Sequence record: NC_135728.1
Length of the DNA: 64,000 nucleotides
Reading direction: 5' to 3' (one strand)
Origin: a phage
The stretch's first letter is position 1, and every line of letters begins with the position of its first letter. The translations under genes and the position numbers were made by a program. Below, piece by piece: positions 6,181 through 64,000 of the stretch. The notes under the pieces are model-generated. The model saw nothing but the letters and a program-made list of their open reading frames with translations. It was not told the origin of the DNA and searched no databases.

Positions 6181-7463
6181 TGCATCAAATCAAAACAACA
6201 CTGTACGCACTGAACAAAGATGGCAGCTACCAACAGTGGAAAGTATTCACTGATGGCGAAAAGGTTATCGTAGAGTTTGGCAAGCTTGACGGTAAATTGC
6301 AGTACAAAGAGACGGTATGCACACCTAAGAACGTAGGTCGTGCCAACGAGACTACAGCTGAGCAACAGGCCGAGCTTGAGGCTATCAGCAAGTGGGAAAA
6401 ACAAGTCCGCCTGGGGTATGTTGAAAACATGGAAGATTGCGAGCAGGGTGTTGATCTTTTACCCATGCTGGTGCATGACTACCTGAAGCGTGGCAAGGCA
6501 CTTAAATTACCTTGCTGGATCTTGCGTAAGTTAGATGGTCTTCGTCTGCTTGTTGTTTTCCAAAATGGTGAGCCTAAATTTATTTCCCGTGGTAATAAGT
6601 CCTACCCTATTCAAGGAAAGCTTTTAGAGCAACTTCGTTCTTTCCATTCTACCACTAGGATTAAACAACTTGATGGGGAACTATACATTCATGGTCTTCC
6701 TTTGCAGAAAATAGTGTCTCTTGCTAAACGGTGGCGCACACAGGAAGAGATTCAGGCCGAGATCGATAAAGACTATGAGGCAGATAAAAAACGCCGTCAT
6801 GCAGCAATTAAGGCAGGCTTATCAACATACAAAAACTTCAACAAGGTAGATATTCCTGTCGATGTTGAGCCTGTTCGTGATGATTTGCGTTACGGCGGGT
6901 ACTGTAGCTACGATCTGGAGTATCACATTTTTGATATTCCTAGCGACAAGGTGTGGTGGGATCCAGAAACAGAGTCTGGGCGCTGCAAGGATCTTATGGA
7001 TGCAGAGGATACCGTTACCACTCTGATGCTTGATCATATCAAGGTTGTTGACGCAGAGCTTGCGTACACAGTTGATCATTGCGAAGAATCTGTTGGTATA
7101 TTCATGTCCGAAGGATATGAAGGTACTATCATGCGTAATTTCTGCGGTAAATATGAGTATGGTCAGCGAACATCTGAAGCATTGAAATGGAAAAAGTTCA
7201 ACGACGCAGAGGTGAAAGTTATTGACGTTGAGAAAGATAAGAATGATGAAGGTGTTCTTATCTGTGTTGACAAGGAAGGTGTTGTTGTTAAAATGAAGAT
7301 GAAAGGCACGCACGAGGAGCGTAGCTATGACAGGATGCAGGAAATGATCGGCAAGTTTGTCACCTTCAAATACCAAGCAAGGACAGAAGACAACAACTAC
7401 CAATTCCCTGTCGGTATCTGCGTCCGAAATGTTAACCCAGACACTTGGGAGGTGCTTGAATGA
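6180..7463 (+). CDS. ATP-dependent DNA ligase
   Basis: Motif I RKLDGLR (KxDGxR), motif III-like QLDGELYIHG, EGYEGTIMR. Confidence 0.8.
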   Translation: MHQIKTTLYALNKDGSYQQWKVFTDGEKVIVEFGKLDGKLQYKETVCTPKNVGRANETTAEQQAELEAISKWEKQVRLGYVENMEDCEQGVDLLPMLVHDYLKRGKALKLPCWILRKLDGLRLLVVFQNGEPKFISRGNKSYPIQGKLLEQLRSFHSTTRIKQLDGELYIHGLPLQKIVSLAKRWRTQEEIQAEIDKDYEADKKRRHAAIKAGLSTYKNFNKVDIPVDVEPVRDDLRYGGYCSYDLEYHIFDIPSDKVWWDPETESGRCKDLMDAEDTVTTLMLDHIKVVDAELAYTVDHCEESVGIFMSEGYEGTIMRNFCGKYEYGQRTSEALKWKKFNDAEVKVIDVEKDKNDEGVLICVDKEGVVVKMKMKGTHEERSYDRMQEMIGKFVTFKYQARTEDNNYQFPVGICVRNVNPDTWEVLE

Positions 7464-39781: not shown

Positions 39782-39997
39782 ATGAAGATAGAAATATTTG
39801 GTGGGGCTGACAACACTCGTGGCCTGATTTACCTTGAATTCGATGAATCATACCTGCCAGAGGTGTTAAATATGGACTCTGTTGCTGAGGCTTTGGGAGT
39901 AAGTCCTAAAGATCTCCACTCTGGTGCTGAGATTGATGGTTGGGAGGAGACCATGAACATCGATTTCAGTGAAGTAGGGGATGAACCACTGGACTGA
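39782..39997 (+). CDS. small acidic protein
   Basis: GAGGAG RBS; last rightward gene before the non-coding hub. Confidence 0.5.
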   Translation: MKIEIFGGADNTRGLIYLEFDESYLPEVLNMDSVAEALGVSPKDLHSGAEIDGWEETMNIDFSEVGDEPLD

Positions 39998-40346
39998 CAC
40001 ACAATTAGTTGCCCGGCTAAAGTGCTGGGAGCACCCATAACACATCTTTCAACTAAATTTCCTACCACCACAATCACTTACCTCCCACACATGACTGTTT
40101 GCTTGTTTAGTGAGCAGTCATGCCTTGACATTCTTGCCTATCCTGATAAAATTAAGTTCTTCTCTTTTCTTTTACCGAGTAATTCGGGTTTTCTGTTCTC
40201 TTCGGTTTGAAGGGGTATGGAGATACACCTGAGTGAACAGGGTGAACAACCGAACCATTGGCTATGGCATTAGCATGGCGAAGCGGACGGGTGACGAAAG
40301 AGGGGCCGGAGGACACCAGTCACTGCCATATGATATATGGGTGATA

Positions 40347-40865
40347 ACCTGAAGAGTCTGAATAAGTGTTTAAGTACCAGTCAGAGGAAAAGGTGAATGG
40401 TAGCCGAAGGGGGAGGGGGGTTACCTGCTTCTGTAAACATGCATCTGAAATACTACTTTAGATAACCTGAACCTGCCTTTCTGACAAATATTCCCTATTA
40501 AACTTGAATTATTTATAGAAAATACCACAACACCACTTAAGTCTTTGATTTTACACACAAATCTTACAGATATTAAACCTCTCTATTTAACATACCTGTA
40601 ACATATACTATACTCCACCTGTCTGATCAATTTCCCCAACTACATCCCCATATTTTCCCTGTCTGTACTACCCCTGCCCCGCCGGGAGTCCCGTCATATC
40701 TGGCTTTCCAGCAAATATCACACCCACAAATATCATCACCTGAAGAGGGTTTCATCCCATAATACATGCCTTACCTGAAGAGCGCTTCATATACCCCGTA
40801 AATTTTTTAATTGACCCCCTCCCCGCCGCCGGAGGGGTTGGCTTTTCCCACACAAACCTGAAGAG
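40347..40865. repeat. dispersed direct repeats of ACCTGAAGAG (4 copies)
   Basis: Copies at about 40347, 40738, 40773, 40856; ACCTGAAC variant at about 40463. Confidence 0.5.
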
Positions 40866-41425
40866 TCAGCCAGAAATATCTGAACAGCCAGTTATACCAC
40901 GATTTTGTGCTTGTCCTACAGGAGTGCTTCCCTGTCAGGAGCCGGTAGCGACTGGAGTGCTGCCAGGCGGACGAAATGGGAATACTTCTCATTCTTATAA
41001 CAATTCTCAAATATCGAGGCAGTGAGGCAAATTAATAGGTGAGGCCGTTCACACAGTGGCACAACATTTGCAACCTATCTTGTGGGATTGAATGAGAATA
41101 CCTATCATTGTGAGAACTGTTATCATTACGGGCAATTTAACATAATACCCATTATGCGCACCACTGGCGATACATACAGGGATTTATAACATGAGTTACT
41201 GTTTACGTATATAACAATTATATTTCTTACTATTTGTGTGGGATATAGTTAGCAGCCGATAGATTAGATATTGACCTGCAGACTTCCAACCGTCTAGACG
41301 TCTAAACGCCCACACAACAAGGTTTATACATACATTACTGAATGTAAACAGGGCCGCAAAAATGCTACCATACAAGATTGTAAATTTTTCATGCAGCACT
41401 TGACAAAGAGGAGAAAAACTTGTCT

Positions 41426-41505
41426 GACACTTTAGACACAATAGTGACATAATATGACACCTTTGACACACTGGACACATTAAACATAATTGACATGCCT
41501 GACTG
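41426..41505. repeat. iteron-like array of GACA(C/T) repeats phased every 9-11 bp
   Basis: Eight copies: GACAC, GACACA, GACAT, GACAC, GACACA, GACACA, GACAT, GACT. Confidence 0.6.
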
Positions 41506-41540
41506 TTTACATAGCTAACTATTTACTAAAAAATGATAAG

Positions 41541-41852
41541 CCATGCCATTCGTTTGCATGATAAAGATTAGCAAGTTAATAATCTTTCGCTGGCTATGCC
41601 AGGTGACCTTTGGTCACCCCTTCGGGTGTTTCTATGACATAATATAAAAGCAGGGCAACTATTAGCAGATCATAGTTGCCTTGCTTGTTAACACCCTTGA
41701 GACGAAGGCTTTGCCTGAGTTTATGTCATGATTAACTAAATACAAGGCAACTATGATCTGATTAATAGTTTGCAGACAAACTATCACGGGGGTGATGGTT
41801 ACTGCTTTTATATTATGTCGCGACTCCGTCGCGCCATGCCATTCGTTTGCAT
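41541..41852. repeat. nested repeat complex: 19-bp direct repeat, 18-bp inverted repeat and internal palindromes
   Basis: CCATGCCATTCGTTTGCAT at 41541 and 41834; GACATAATATAAAAGCAG (41636) inverted at 41802; GGTGACC-TTT-GGTCACC; GGCAACTAT-N9-ATAGTTGCC. Confidence 0.6.
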
Positions 41853-42477
41853 AGTTGCCTTATTGTTACGAATAAAACAATTGCATTGTTAATGATTTCT
41901 TATCTTTCTCTTAGTCATCTAATGATTCCAGTCAGTCTAGTAATGTACAGTAAACATTAGACGACTAAAGATTTCCCTGTTTATGATAACTCACCGTGAT
42001 AATTTCAGGCTGTTTACTAAAAATGTTGACACCTAAGCTGATTTATGTTATGCAGTTTACACGAATAATTATTTTATGCAGGTATTGACTATTCCGTTAT
42101 TCTATGGTTGGAATAAATACTTAGCAGACTATAGAATGGTGAGCGTACGTAAATTCTGAGATCTGGCGGCTATAGTTATACTCGATTTTTCACGTAGAAC
42201 ACGCTTTTGTGAGTGTGTAAGTGTATGACTTATAAAGATTTTTAGTTGTTGACAAGATATTGAAGATGTGCATCAGGTTAAATTTTGTGCAATAGCGGCA
42301 TTACGTGCAATTCTGAGAGAGAAAACGGGTAAAAATGGCCCTGCTACCACAAGATGAAAGATTATGCAATAGTTATTTTTATATGTATATTTGTACAGTA
42401 GGGTTAATTGCTGGCTTGTTGATTATTCCACTTGCCAGGTGGGGCCGTTTGTGGTAGGAGAAATACAGACAAAAAGA

Positions 42478-42508
42478 AAGGGGCCTTTTAAAGCCCCTGA
42501 TAGTTTAG
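42478..42508 (-). terminator. rho-independent terminator of the leftward block
   Basis: On minus strand GGGGC-loop-GCCCC followed by TTTCTTTTT, just past gene 42517-42936. Confidence 0.6.
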
Positions 42509-42516
42509 TTAAGAAA

Positions 42517-42936
42517 TTATAATGATTCGTATATTTCAAAAATCCGATTTGCCAGGTCGTTACGGTAGCGGAATTTTTCCTCACGTTTGATCATCAGATC
42601 TTTAAAGCCATATTCTTTAAGCACTTCATTAACTTTATGGCGGCATACCTTCATATTATCTTGTGCGTCACCAATAAACTTGTTGCTATGGTGCATGGCT
42701 TTAATTTCTTCTTCCAGGACCAGGGCAACTATGCGGACCGGATCAAGCTGATAGGCGGTAACATCAATGCGGCATTGTAAACGGCTTTTTACGTCTGCCA
42801 CCGGATATACTGCAACCTCTTCCCCGTCAACATTGACAATAATTAGTTTACCATCGATTTCGAATCCTTTCGCCGCCGGACCGTGACAAAAAGCGTTATC
42901 AAAGCTATATGCCGGATTATTAGATTTAATGTTCAT
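42517..42936 (-). CDS. hypothetical protein
   Basis: Track ORF; AGAGGT RBS. Confidence 0.5.
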   Translation of the reverse strand: MNIKSNNPAYSFDNAFCHGPAAKGFEIDGKLIIVNVDGEEVAVYPVADVKSRLQCRIDVTAYQLDPVRIVALVLEEEIKAMHHSNKFIGDAQDNMKVCRHKVNEVLKEYGFKDLMIKREEKFRYRNDLANRIFEIYESL

Positions 42937-62207: not shown

Positions 62208-62483
62208 CAATAGTTCAGGTAGGTCGTTAAGCTACCCCGCACCATTACGTGCATAGCCATACGTTTTCACGTAGGATCGGACCATCTCATATTCCTATGA
62301 TAAGCAACCACAGGAATCCTCCCATTTCGACCGCACTTGCTGGTCTACTTCCTTTCGGAATGGCCTCTGAGCGTTCGCTCTTTTGAGCGCTTCGTTGCGG
62401 ATTACCTTGCCATAAGGTTTAGGCTTCCCGCAGTTAAAGAGGTTATTCGACATAGATTACTCTATGAAGCCACAATGTTATTT
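62208..62483 (-). ncRNA. putative group I self-splicing intron (276 nt) in the DNA polymerase gene
   Basis: Interrupts the ORF between the H and D codons of motif C; exon ends in U, intron ends in G; GUGG guide 11 nt into intron can pair with exon CCAU; P-like CUGCGGGAAG, Q-like AAUCCGCAAC, P7 strands GACCA / UGGUC. Confidence 0.65.
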
Positions 62484-64000
62484 ATGGTAATAAATAATAC
62501 GACGAACACCTTCATCGTACCACCCACGCTTCACCATTTGGTGGTGCATGAGTATCCCAACTAAGTCACACAGCGATGCACCACCATTTTGTTGGTATGC
62601 ATTAAGTAAAGAGTGTTTAGATCTGGTCCAGATAGCATGACCATCGAAAGAGTAGATAAACTTCTTACCTGTTGCTTCCCAGAATTTCTCCAGATCCTCT
62701 TTGCGCCCCTTAAGACCGGGGTTGGCATCCCAAAGTGCATCTATTACCCTTTGCCCCAACTCTGGAGAGATGTCCAACATATCTGCAACTTTATCTTTTT
62801 GTGCCCCGTACATAACACCATACGTGATAGGTTTACCGTCGTTACGGGACACCTCTCTGCCTGCTACTTTTGTATATGCCTCGGCATTGTTTTGGTGTGC
62901 GTCTCCGTTACTTACAACATCATAATACAGGCCGTTGTCGAACTCAAAGGCACCCCAAGCCCCGATAAGCTGCTCTAAGTTGGACCCGTCAATACCGATC
63001 TGAAAGTATCCGGGAGGAACACCCCATAGACTACGCATCTCTTTACCCATAACCACTTTAGGAGATGGTTTAGGCATGTTTGCACAAATACTGTGTTTCT
63101 GTCTGGAAGTGTTTGTTAGCCCAGAACTTTTAGCAGGAAGCTTATGGTCAATCTTCAAACGTGGGTGATTAAGAAGACCAGTATCAACCTTATCCTCCTT
63201 GATTGGGTCAAGGACCGATCTGCGGTTTCGCAATGATAACCACAAGACGATATCTTTAGCCATCTCTCCGTTCAATTTTTCAAGATTCGGACACAGGTGT
63301 CCAAACGTATCTTTCAGTTGCGGAGAAGTAATAAGTGCCCTGGCTTTTCTACGTATTTTCCCGAACACTTCCTTTTTAATCCTTTCGGAGTTAGGAAAGC
63401 TTCGGAACTTGTGCACGGTTGTCTGGAACTTAGCATCAGTTTTGTTCCAGAAGTTGATAATTAGGTCACAATACTCTGACTCTAAAAGCTCGTCCATATA
63501 AGCATATACTCGTGCATCAACATCTGCATCAGGTAGAGCTTTCTTCTTGCTGTCTTTAGTTACATCCTTAGTTCTCCACATTGTCGGGAGCCAGCCAGCG
63601 CTGATCAGATACCGCTTAATGTCGTCCTGATTGCTGATTTTCATAGGTATCTTGCAGTCCGGCATTCGCTTCTGCTGTAGATCACTTATTGCCTGATCCA
63701 TCAGCTCTTTAGGCAAAGGGTGTGGTGTGGAAGTTCCCTTAATATAGCCTCTCAAGAAATCAGCCATCTTATCGGGGTCTTTGCAGCCCATCTCTTCACA
63801 CCATTTTATCCCCATCTTGCTGACATCCCCTGTAGAGGTAAATGCTCTCTTAGGCGGGGCTTTGAACTCTAAAGCGCTCATGTCTACAGGATAGCCAAGC
63901 TTATCTTTTAACCATTTCCAACCATTATTAGAGATTGTCCCGTCTTGGTTAAACGGCTTTTCAGGGAACTTGGGCCGCTGAGACATTGACAGCTCTTTTA
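62484..64000 (-). CDS. DNA polymerase family A, exon 1 (partial; N-terminus may lie beyond the window)
   Basis: Motif B-like KPITYGVMYGAQ; ends ...VRRIIYYH (cf. Pol I RMIMQVH-DE); reading frame stays open upstream of the track start at 63986. Confidence 0.8.

Follow-up and report, generated by a model that had tools for sequence, protein, structure and literature searches.

Short one-strand repeats beside the direct terminal repeat of an rV5-like Vequintavirus are candidate recognition sites for end formation or packaging

We analysed a 64,000-nucleotide stretch of phage DNA (sequence record NC_135728.1; hereafter the window), which belongs to an rV5-like Escherichia coli myovirus of the genus Vequintavirus with a genome of ~137 kb, and found that four copies of the decamer ACCTGAAGAG stand next to a direct terminal repeat (DTR) of ~459 bp. 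The motif is real, confined to a single locus and biased to one strand, its core is conserved among relatives, the DTR beside it can be placed, and its fourth copy has been kept in the same flank of the DTR in a phage of another genus. The explanation that we favour, tentatively, is that the (A/G)CCTGAAGAG repeats would act in cis as protein-recognition sites for end formation or packaging, most plausibly through the terminase.

The region that contains the repeats is matched at 90–97% identity by 121 phage records. It falls in a gap of ~2.5 kb (39998–42516) that is free of listed open reading frames, lies between an ORF on the plus strand (39782–39997) and an ORF on the minus strand (42517–42936), separates two convergent gene blocks and holds the DTR together with both of its flanks. 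The equivalent stretch of rV5 (104014–106617), between ORF163 on the plus strand and ORF164 on the minus strand, carries no annotation, and the statement of the preliminary description that the copies lie in non-coding DNA agrees with both genomes. In the rV5 genome paper the gap was drawn as a "non-coding" box without explanation, bidirectional terminators were expected in it and not found, and the genome was regarded as circularly permuted (PMC3606486). Some vequintavirus records annotate up to 16 small ORFs in the gap. These small ORFs are not conserved, and the indels of relatives are not multiples of three. Neither a tRNA nor a tmRNA was found within the window, and Rfam gave no match in the gap at the gathering score and, at E-values up to 10, two weak, unrelated sub-threshold matches elsewhere in the gap. 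Host-derived sequence was ruled out, as the gap had no match among 5,426 E. coli genomes. Likewise, BLASTN detected no similarity between the gap of the window and the gaps of phAPEC8, LTH01 and A7_1. Far from the repeats, at 62258–62493 on the minus strand, the window carries a group I catalytic intron (Rfam RF00028, 64.7 bits, E = 4e-14). About 19 GenBank records (MG0656xx) named 'Campylobacter phage', with Campylobacter jejuni as the host, are 90–97% identical to this E. coli vequintavirus; some of them are flagged UNVERIFIED, and they are probably mislabelled or contaminant assemblies.

Judged from record ends, the packaged genome has its physical ends within the gap, and the DTR is predicted at window 40966–41424 because the record ends of EdH4 and of six other relatives recur at two points and a length of 458 bp is given in the literature. 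The GenBank record of EdH4 starts at the base corresponding to window 40966 and ends at window 41424, with ~459 bp common to its two ends. The records of bov11CS3 and bov25_3 likewise start at 40966, those of Pr121LW, EcoIv14a_Aya and ECP2309 open at 41424/41425, and that of ECP2303 opens, by position arithmetic, within ~2 bp of the 41424 boundary. Terminal redundancies of 458 bp were reported for EdH4 and HdK5 by Korf et al. in 2019 (PMC6563267). Such record ends, shared among several sources, are hard to explain without fixed termini, and the close relatives have a short exact direct terminal repeat of the kind that characterizes T7-type ends. The placement in the window is taken from the record ends of close relatives and from the literature, not from the window's own virion DNA. 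In one recent study, headful packaging was inferred for a vequintavirus from PhageTerm (PMC13211470). Many vequintavirus records begin at an arbitrary point or describe the genome as circularly permuted. The window does not include the terminase, and Pfam scans of seven of the eight ORFs of at least 480 aa in the first 50 kb of the relative A112b found no terminase among them.

The four exact copies of ACCTGAAGAG in the window, which start at 40347, 40738, 40773 and 40856, all lie on the plus strand, and the minus strand has none; in counts for the gap, the motif came out as the most over-represented 9-mer. Dinucleotide-preserving shuffles of the 64-kb window gave a mean of 0.11 copies and a maximum of one, and the four copies noticed in the preliminary description are therefore real. 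Its proposal was to fall if the decamer were equally frequent elsewhere in the genome, and we counted it in A112b, a complete relative (134,946 bp) that is 96% identical to the window across 40100–41050 and was deposited as "Campylobacter phage A112b" and classified as a Vequintavirus. A112b has three copies of ACCTGAAGAG, every one at the same locus, where the fourth site reads GCCTGAAGAG, and the decamer is absent from the remaining ~132 kb; it is confined to the locus. As a unit the decamer stood only in part. The four copies are exact, but the conserved unit is the 9-mer CCTGAAGAG, which is preceded by A, G or T among relatives and occurs four times in coding DNA of the window as well (15589, 16456, 23090 and 39700). 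This core is retained at nearly every site across 14–15 distinct relatives, with single copies mutated in individual phages. A ACCTGAAC variant at 40465, which had been counted with the repeats, does not belong with them: it lies in a poorly conserved stretch and is lost in most relatives.

Copy 1 (40347–40356) lies 619 bp left of the DTR boundary inside an ultraconserved block, and its context ATAACCTGAAGAGTCT is unchanged in 14 of 15 distinct relatives. Copy 2 (40738–40747), 228 bp left of the boundary, reads GCCTGAAGAG in 11 of 14 distinct relatives, and its core CCTGAAGAG is retained in 13 of them. Copy 3 (40773–40782), at 193 bp, is retained in 12 of the 14 and mutated in two, to CCCGAAGAG and CCTGAAGAT, and the core of copy 4 (40856–40865), at 110 bp, is retained in all 14. 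The four copies share a sharply bounded, non-palindromic 10-nt unit in a single orientation. Their flanks are dissimilar, with 12–18 nt shared between pairs only: beyond the unit, copies 1 and 4 have just "TC" in common, and copies 2 and 3 share an 18-nt unit, ACCTGAAGAGsGyTTCAT (repeat family D11). The spacings (391, 35 and 83 bp) are irregular and are altered by indels in relatives. Further, the local contexts of the four copies permit different small hairpins or none, which means that the conserved property of the copies is the sequence itself and not a common RNA or DNA hairpin. An indel-prone segment was found at 40895–40945 in the comparison with relatives.

Copy 4 also has a counterpart beyond the genus. 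For Klebsiella phage KPP-1 (Vequintavirinae, Mydovirus), coverage and PhageTerm analysis mapped a DTR of 514 bp, and packaging was assigned to the T7 type (PMC9862379). The DTR of KPP-1 sits in a similar gap between convergent gene blocks, and its boundaries resemble those of the window: with the boundary marked by a slash, the left one reads GTGCTA/GACGGAC in KPP-1 and GTGCTGCCA/GGCGGAC in the window, and the right one TTGACAAGGAGAG...TTGTGT/ and TTGACAAAGAGGAG...CTTGTC/, respectively. In the left flank of the KPP-1 DTR (~335 bp), ACCTGAAGTGTCAGCC agrees with the copy 4 site ACCTGAAGAGTCAGCC at 15 of 16 positions. It is the best 16-mer match between the two left flanks, and none of 200 shuffles reached 15/16. 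Another site of the CTGAAG type, ATCTGAAGGG, lies in this KPP-1 flank together with the AAATATCA pair that the window also has; in BLASTN against the phage collection, the flank was not otherwise recovered. In A7_1 and LTH01, two other Vequintavirinae, GCCTGAAGAG or GCCTAAAGAG was found ~105–110 bp to the left of the position aligned with the start of the DTR, a distance close to the 110 bp of copy 4. Scans of IMG/VR with two patterns (motif-pair and motif-context) returned chance or coding (Pro-Glu-Glu) matches only, and a 20-mer around copy 1 matched two contigs, one of them at vequintavirus genome size. We found no description of the motif in the literature searched, and nothing usable on the transcriptomics of rV5-like phages or on the function of the T7 repeats.

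Since the copies lie just outside the DTR, terminus-processing or packaging machinery is indicated rather than a generic regulator. A linear genome would be packaged with the ~459-bp DTR, and in concatemers the copies would flank the junction on the unique-sequence side, 101–619 bp outside the left DTR boundary and in one orientation. A sequence-specific protein would bind them, most likely the small terminase subunit or a terminase-associated factor and possibly a host factor. Its binding would mark the junction for cuts between 40965 and 40966 and between 41424 and 41425, and packaging would start at the junction so marked. From the sequence we infer the binding of a protein to the motif, the identity of that protein and the outcome in packaging or end formation. 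The preliminary description had suggested binding sites for a phage or host factor, and this is the most economical reading of the repeats. It is plausible and partly supported, as the confinement to the locus, the single orientation, the conserved core and the cross-genus copy all speak for putative binding sites; the terminal-repeat context had been missed. Several observations weigh against the packaging reading. Spacings of 35 and 83 bp, which are not helically phased and are changed by indels in relatives, speak against a rigid nucleoprotein array. Some viable relatives carry mutations in individual copies, so the copies must be at least redundant. Copy 1, finally, is 619 bp away from the cut and belongs to a block that may owe its extreme conservation to something else.

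By their arrangement, the repeats appear to fit a known class, in which short repeats or recognition sites adjoin the terminal repeat of a phage. Phage T7 has a 160-bp terminal repeat. Its left 340 bp contain (A)CCTAAAG 11 times, more copies and variants stand immediately before the right repeat, and one strand carries them all. As in T7 and T3, the window has a short exact terminal repeat in non-coding DNA, an adjoining 7–10-nt motif repeated on one strand and promoters near the genome ends; its one-strand motif lies beside the terminal repeat in four copies within 620 bp of the left boundary and is rare elsewhere. The motifs themselves look alike (T7 ACCTAAAG(AG) and window ACCTGAAGAG; T7 TCACCTAAAGAGGGT and copy 2 TCACCTGAAGAGGGT), but in a shuffle test the likeness did not reach significance. 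We rejected homology with the T7 repeat, as the best match of 14/16 was equalled in about half of 200 shuffles, and because a match of this size is common by chance the likeness to T7 is one of analogy. The two systems also differ. T7 has copies inside its repeat and a tight array to the right of it, whereas the four copies here are dispersed on the left flank only, a different unit (GACAY) is arrayed on the right, and the phage is a 137-kb myovirus without an RNA polymerase of its own. The function of the T7 repeats has, to our knowledge, not been established. In T3 and T7, packaging-specificity sequences lie within 5% of the termini, and pausing of the RNA polymerase at the junction starts maturation (PMC3276506).

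A second comparison is offered by phage lambda and phage P1. The R sites of lambda cosB, which are bound by gpNu1, and the hexamers of P1 pac are several short non-palindromic sites beside a cut that position the terminase. The repeats described here resemble them as multiple short non-palindromic sites beside a cut site, with recognition being putative here. In contrast, lambda and P1 have cohesive ends or headful cuts and not duplicated terminal repeats, and their sites have defined spacing and come with sites for bending proteins, whereas the repeats here are irregularly spaced.

The neighbourhood of the repeats contains several further elements, and some of them bear on other explanations. 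A strong sigma-70-type promoter on the plus strand (40125–40152; TTGACA, 16 nt, TGaTAAAAT), which agrees with the consensus at 11 of 12 positions and has an extended -10, is directed at the DTR and is almost invariant across 10 relatives, with two single-base changes. Two base pairs before its -35 hexamer ends an inverted repeat (40090–40122) with a perfect 8-bp stem (40090–40097/40115–40122, CATGACTG ... CAGTCATG) and a 17-nt loop; relatives have kept this repeat, which could be an operator or else a terminator belonging to the gene block upstream. The promoter and copy 1 are contained in the ultraconserved G-rich block (40085–40425, plus strand; GC skew +0.2 to +0.43), which is the most conserved stretch of the neighbourhood, with column identity of 98–100% against 90–97% in the neighbouring genes and at least 99% identity in 97 of 118 phage records. 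The block had no match in Rfam or in E. coli. A non-coding RNA is one possible identity, a control element of an origin or of packaging another, and this promoter-driven element may be more intriguing than the repeats. It ends in GGGGGAGGGGGG (40409–40420, G5AG6), the sole tract of its kind in the 64-kb window, which resembles the G-rich CSB II element of human mitochondrial DNA, where transcription stalls and replication primers are formed. G5AG5AG5 tracts occur in the otherwise dissimilar gaps of LTH01 and A7_1 in the same orientation (loci L012, ~6493–6509, and L013, ~6774–6790, on the minus strand of those loci). A variable AT-rich stretch (40450–40650, 27–35% GC) follows the G-rich block, and a C-rich, G-poor tract of the plus strand (40450–40900; GC skew -0.2 to -0.77) contains copies 2–4 as purine-rich islands.

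This succession of promoter, G-rich block and AT-rich tract on one strand is what an origin of replication might look like, and the repeats could serve a phage initiator or primase-helicase as iterons adjoining an origin that is primed by transcription. This origin would consist of the sigma-70 promoter at 40125, a G-rich RNA ending in G5AG6 and prone to form an R-loop or G-quadruplex, and the AT-rich stretch at 40450–40650. We consider this unlikely, although several observations are in keeping with it: the uniqueness of the G5AG6 tract in the window and the common orientation of its G5AG5AG5 counterparts in A7_1 and LTH01, and a DnaB-like helicase that Pfam scans of A112b show the phage to encode. 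In T7, secondary origins are found at promoters next to the genome ends. The type I iterons of phage P4, TGTTCACC, are bound by the alpha primase-helicase, and the repeats here are, like them, short direct repeats in non-coding control DNA; both phages encode a primase or helicase. The repeats of the window, unlike P4-type iterons, have neither an adjacent initiator gene nor regular spacing. Origin iterons are regularly spaced repeats that adjoin an AT-rich unwinding element and are bound by an initiator. An AT-rich tract is present here; the copies are irregularly and variably spaced, and copies 2–4 lie beyond that tract instead of flanking it. The left flank of KPP-1 (~335 bp), moreover, keeps the copy 4 site without the promoter and the G-rich block. 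For rV5, a skew change at 104425–105475, inside the gap, was reported in a search for the origin, but the authors credited it to the switch in transcription direction (PMC3606486).

The tract of the gap that most resembles iterons lies beyond the DTR, to its right; it is formed by a different repeat, and the tandem arrays are clearer there. An array of GACAC/GACAT units on the plus strand (41425–41500) begins at the first base past the DTR, with units at 41426, 41435, 41446, 41456, 41465, 41474 and 41492, a spacing of 9–11 bp and a copy number that differs among relatives. In relatives, copy-number-variable ACTGTTYACR repeats follow this array. The segment 41425–41530 is the least conserved part of the gap (48–69% column identity) and is overlapped by sigma-70-like promoter matches directed inward from the left genome end. 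Farther on, two nested perfect 18-nt inverted repeats (41636–41653/41802–41819 and 41666–41683/41743–41760) could form a large cruciform or hairpin, and an exact 20-nt direct repeat, GCCATGCCATTCGTTTGCAT, occurs at 41540 and 41833.

The repeats could also be elements of an RNA. All copies lie on the strand that would be transcribed from the 40125 promoter, which might drive a non-coding transcript through 40160–40900, in which repeated CCUGAAGAG would bind a protein or form base pairs, in the manner of a sponge or decoy RNA. We regard this as quite unlikely. In its favour, conservation of the block at 40085–40425 exceeds that of the genes around it, and among the few substitutions in the block several exchange G and A opposite a U of the predicted fold. 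The single-sequence fold is modestly stable (z = -2.2), and the copies stand as purine islands in a C-rich, weakly structured tract. Nevertheless, no Rfam family matched at E-values up to 10, no compensatory covariation was seen among 14–15 distinct sequences, and the four copies have differing local structural contexts. In addition, the terminator scan placed a terminator-like hairpin (40816–40837, plus strand) and an early hairpin with a U-tract (40175–40187) in the path of the transcript, and KPP-1 has conserved the copy 4 site without the promoter block.

Alternatively, the copies may be functionless relics of small local duplications in a region conserved for other reasons. The 18-nt unit common to copies 2 and 3 would fit such an origin, as would two stretches, 40664–40747 and 40800–40865 (repeat family D20), that look like longer and shorter versions of one module with the order C-rich hairpin, GGCTTT(T)CC, CACA-rich sequence and decamer. 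Within the genus, moreover, the surrounding DNA is about as conserved as the motif. The probability of this explanation is nevertheless low in our view, as it leaves unaccounted for the sharp common edges of four copies in otherwise dissimilar flanks, the retention of the core next to a variable base and the copy 4 site as the best-conserved 16-mer in the flank of KPP-1.

Another short repeat of the same tract, AAATATC(A), was found in k-mer counts on the plus strand near the left DTR boundary (40713, 40728 and 40874, within the C-rich tract, and 41009) and at positions 2415, 2432 and 2560 of locus L145. It recurs in the corresponding flanks or gaps of KPP-1, LTH01, A7_1 and phAPEC8 and is a second candidate recognition motif, more widely shared than CCTGAAGAG.

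The G-rich element (40085–40425) and the CCTGAAGAG sites might together form one transcription-coupled device at the genome end, but the chance of this seems slim to us. At the G-tract, host RNA polymerase that had started from 40125 would come to a halt or give rise to an R-loop or G-quadruplex, and factors bound to the decamers would then recruit the terminase or the replisome to the concatemer junction. If this is true, the host polymerase would play here the part that a pause of T7 RNA polymerase plays in triggering the processing of T7 concatemers.

Several other identities were rejected. The CUGAAGA of the repeats fits the CUGANGA core of hammerhead ribozymes, but no hammerhead model of Rfam matched at E-values up to 10, and inspection showed three extra bases between the upstream hairpin and the core and no U-H cleavage site. 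A hairpin like lambda boxB can be formed by copy 2 (ACCU-GAAGA-GGGU, with the same loop as in nutL boxB) but by none of the other three copies. Promoter elements and Shine-Dalgarno sequences were dismissed, as the copies are not followed by a -10-like hexamer at any consistent interval or by start codons at a suitable distance. CTGAAG is the site of Eco57I/AcuI and GAAGAG that of EarI; restriction-site avoidance was rejected because CTGAAGAG is not depleted in the genome (15 observed against ~3.9 expected).

The reading of the repeats as sites for end formation or packaging concerns phages that have been isolated widely and serve in the typing and biocontrol of E. coli O157. No explanation has been given since 2013 for the 2.5-kb "non-coding" region of these phages, and in many GenBank records the genome is taken to be circularly permuted. 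The result is incremental and introduces no new principle. It offers, in the DTR within the gap and the adjoining locus-specific motif, concrete candidates for packaging and end-formation signals. The terminal repeat at 40966–41424 suggests that vequintavirus genomes should be oriented from that end and that the small ORFs annotated in the gap should be treated with suspicion. Beyond correct orientation and annotation, these candidates may be of use in engineering (rebooting and transducing particles) and in comparing end recognition between large myoviruses and T7-like podoviruses.
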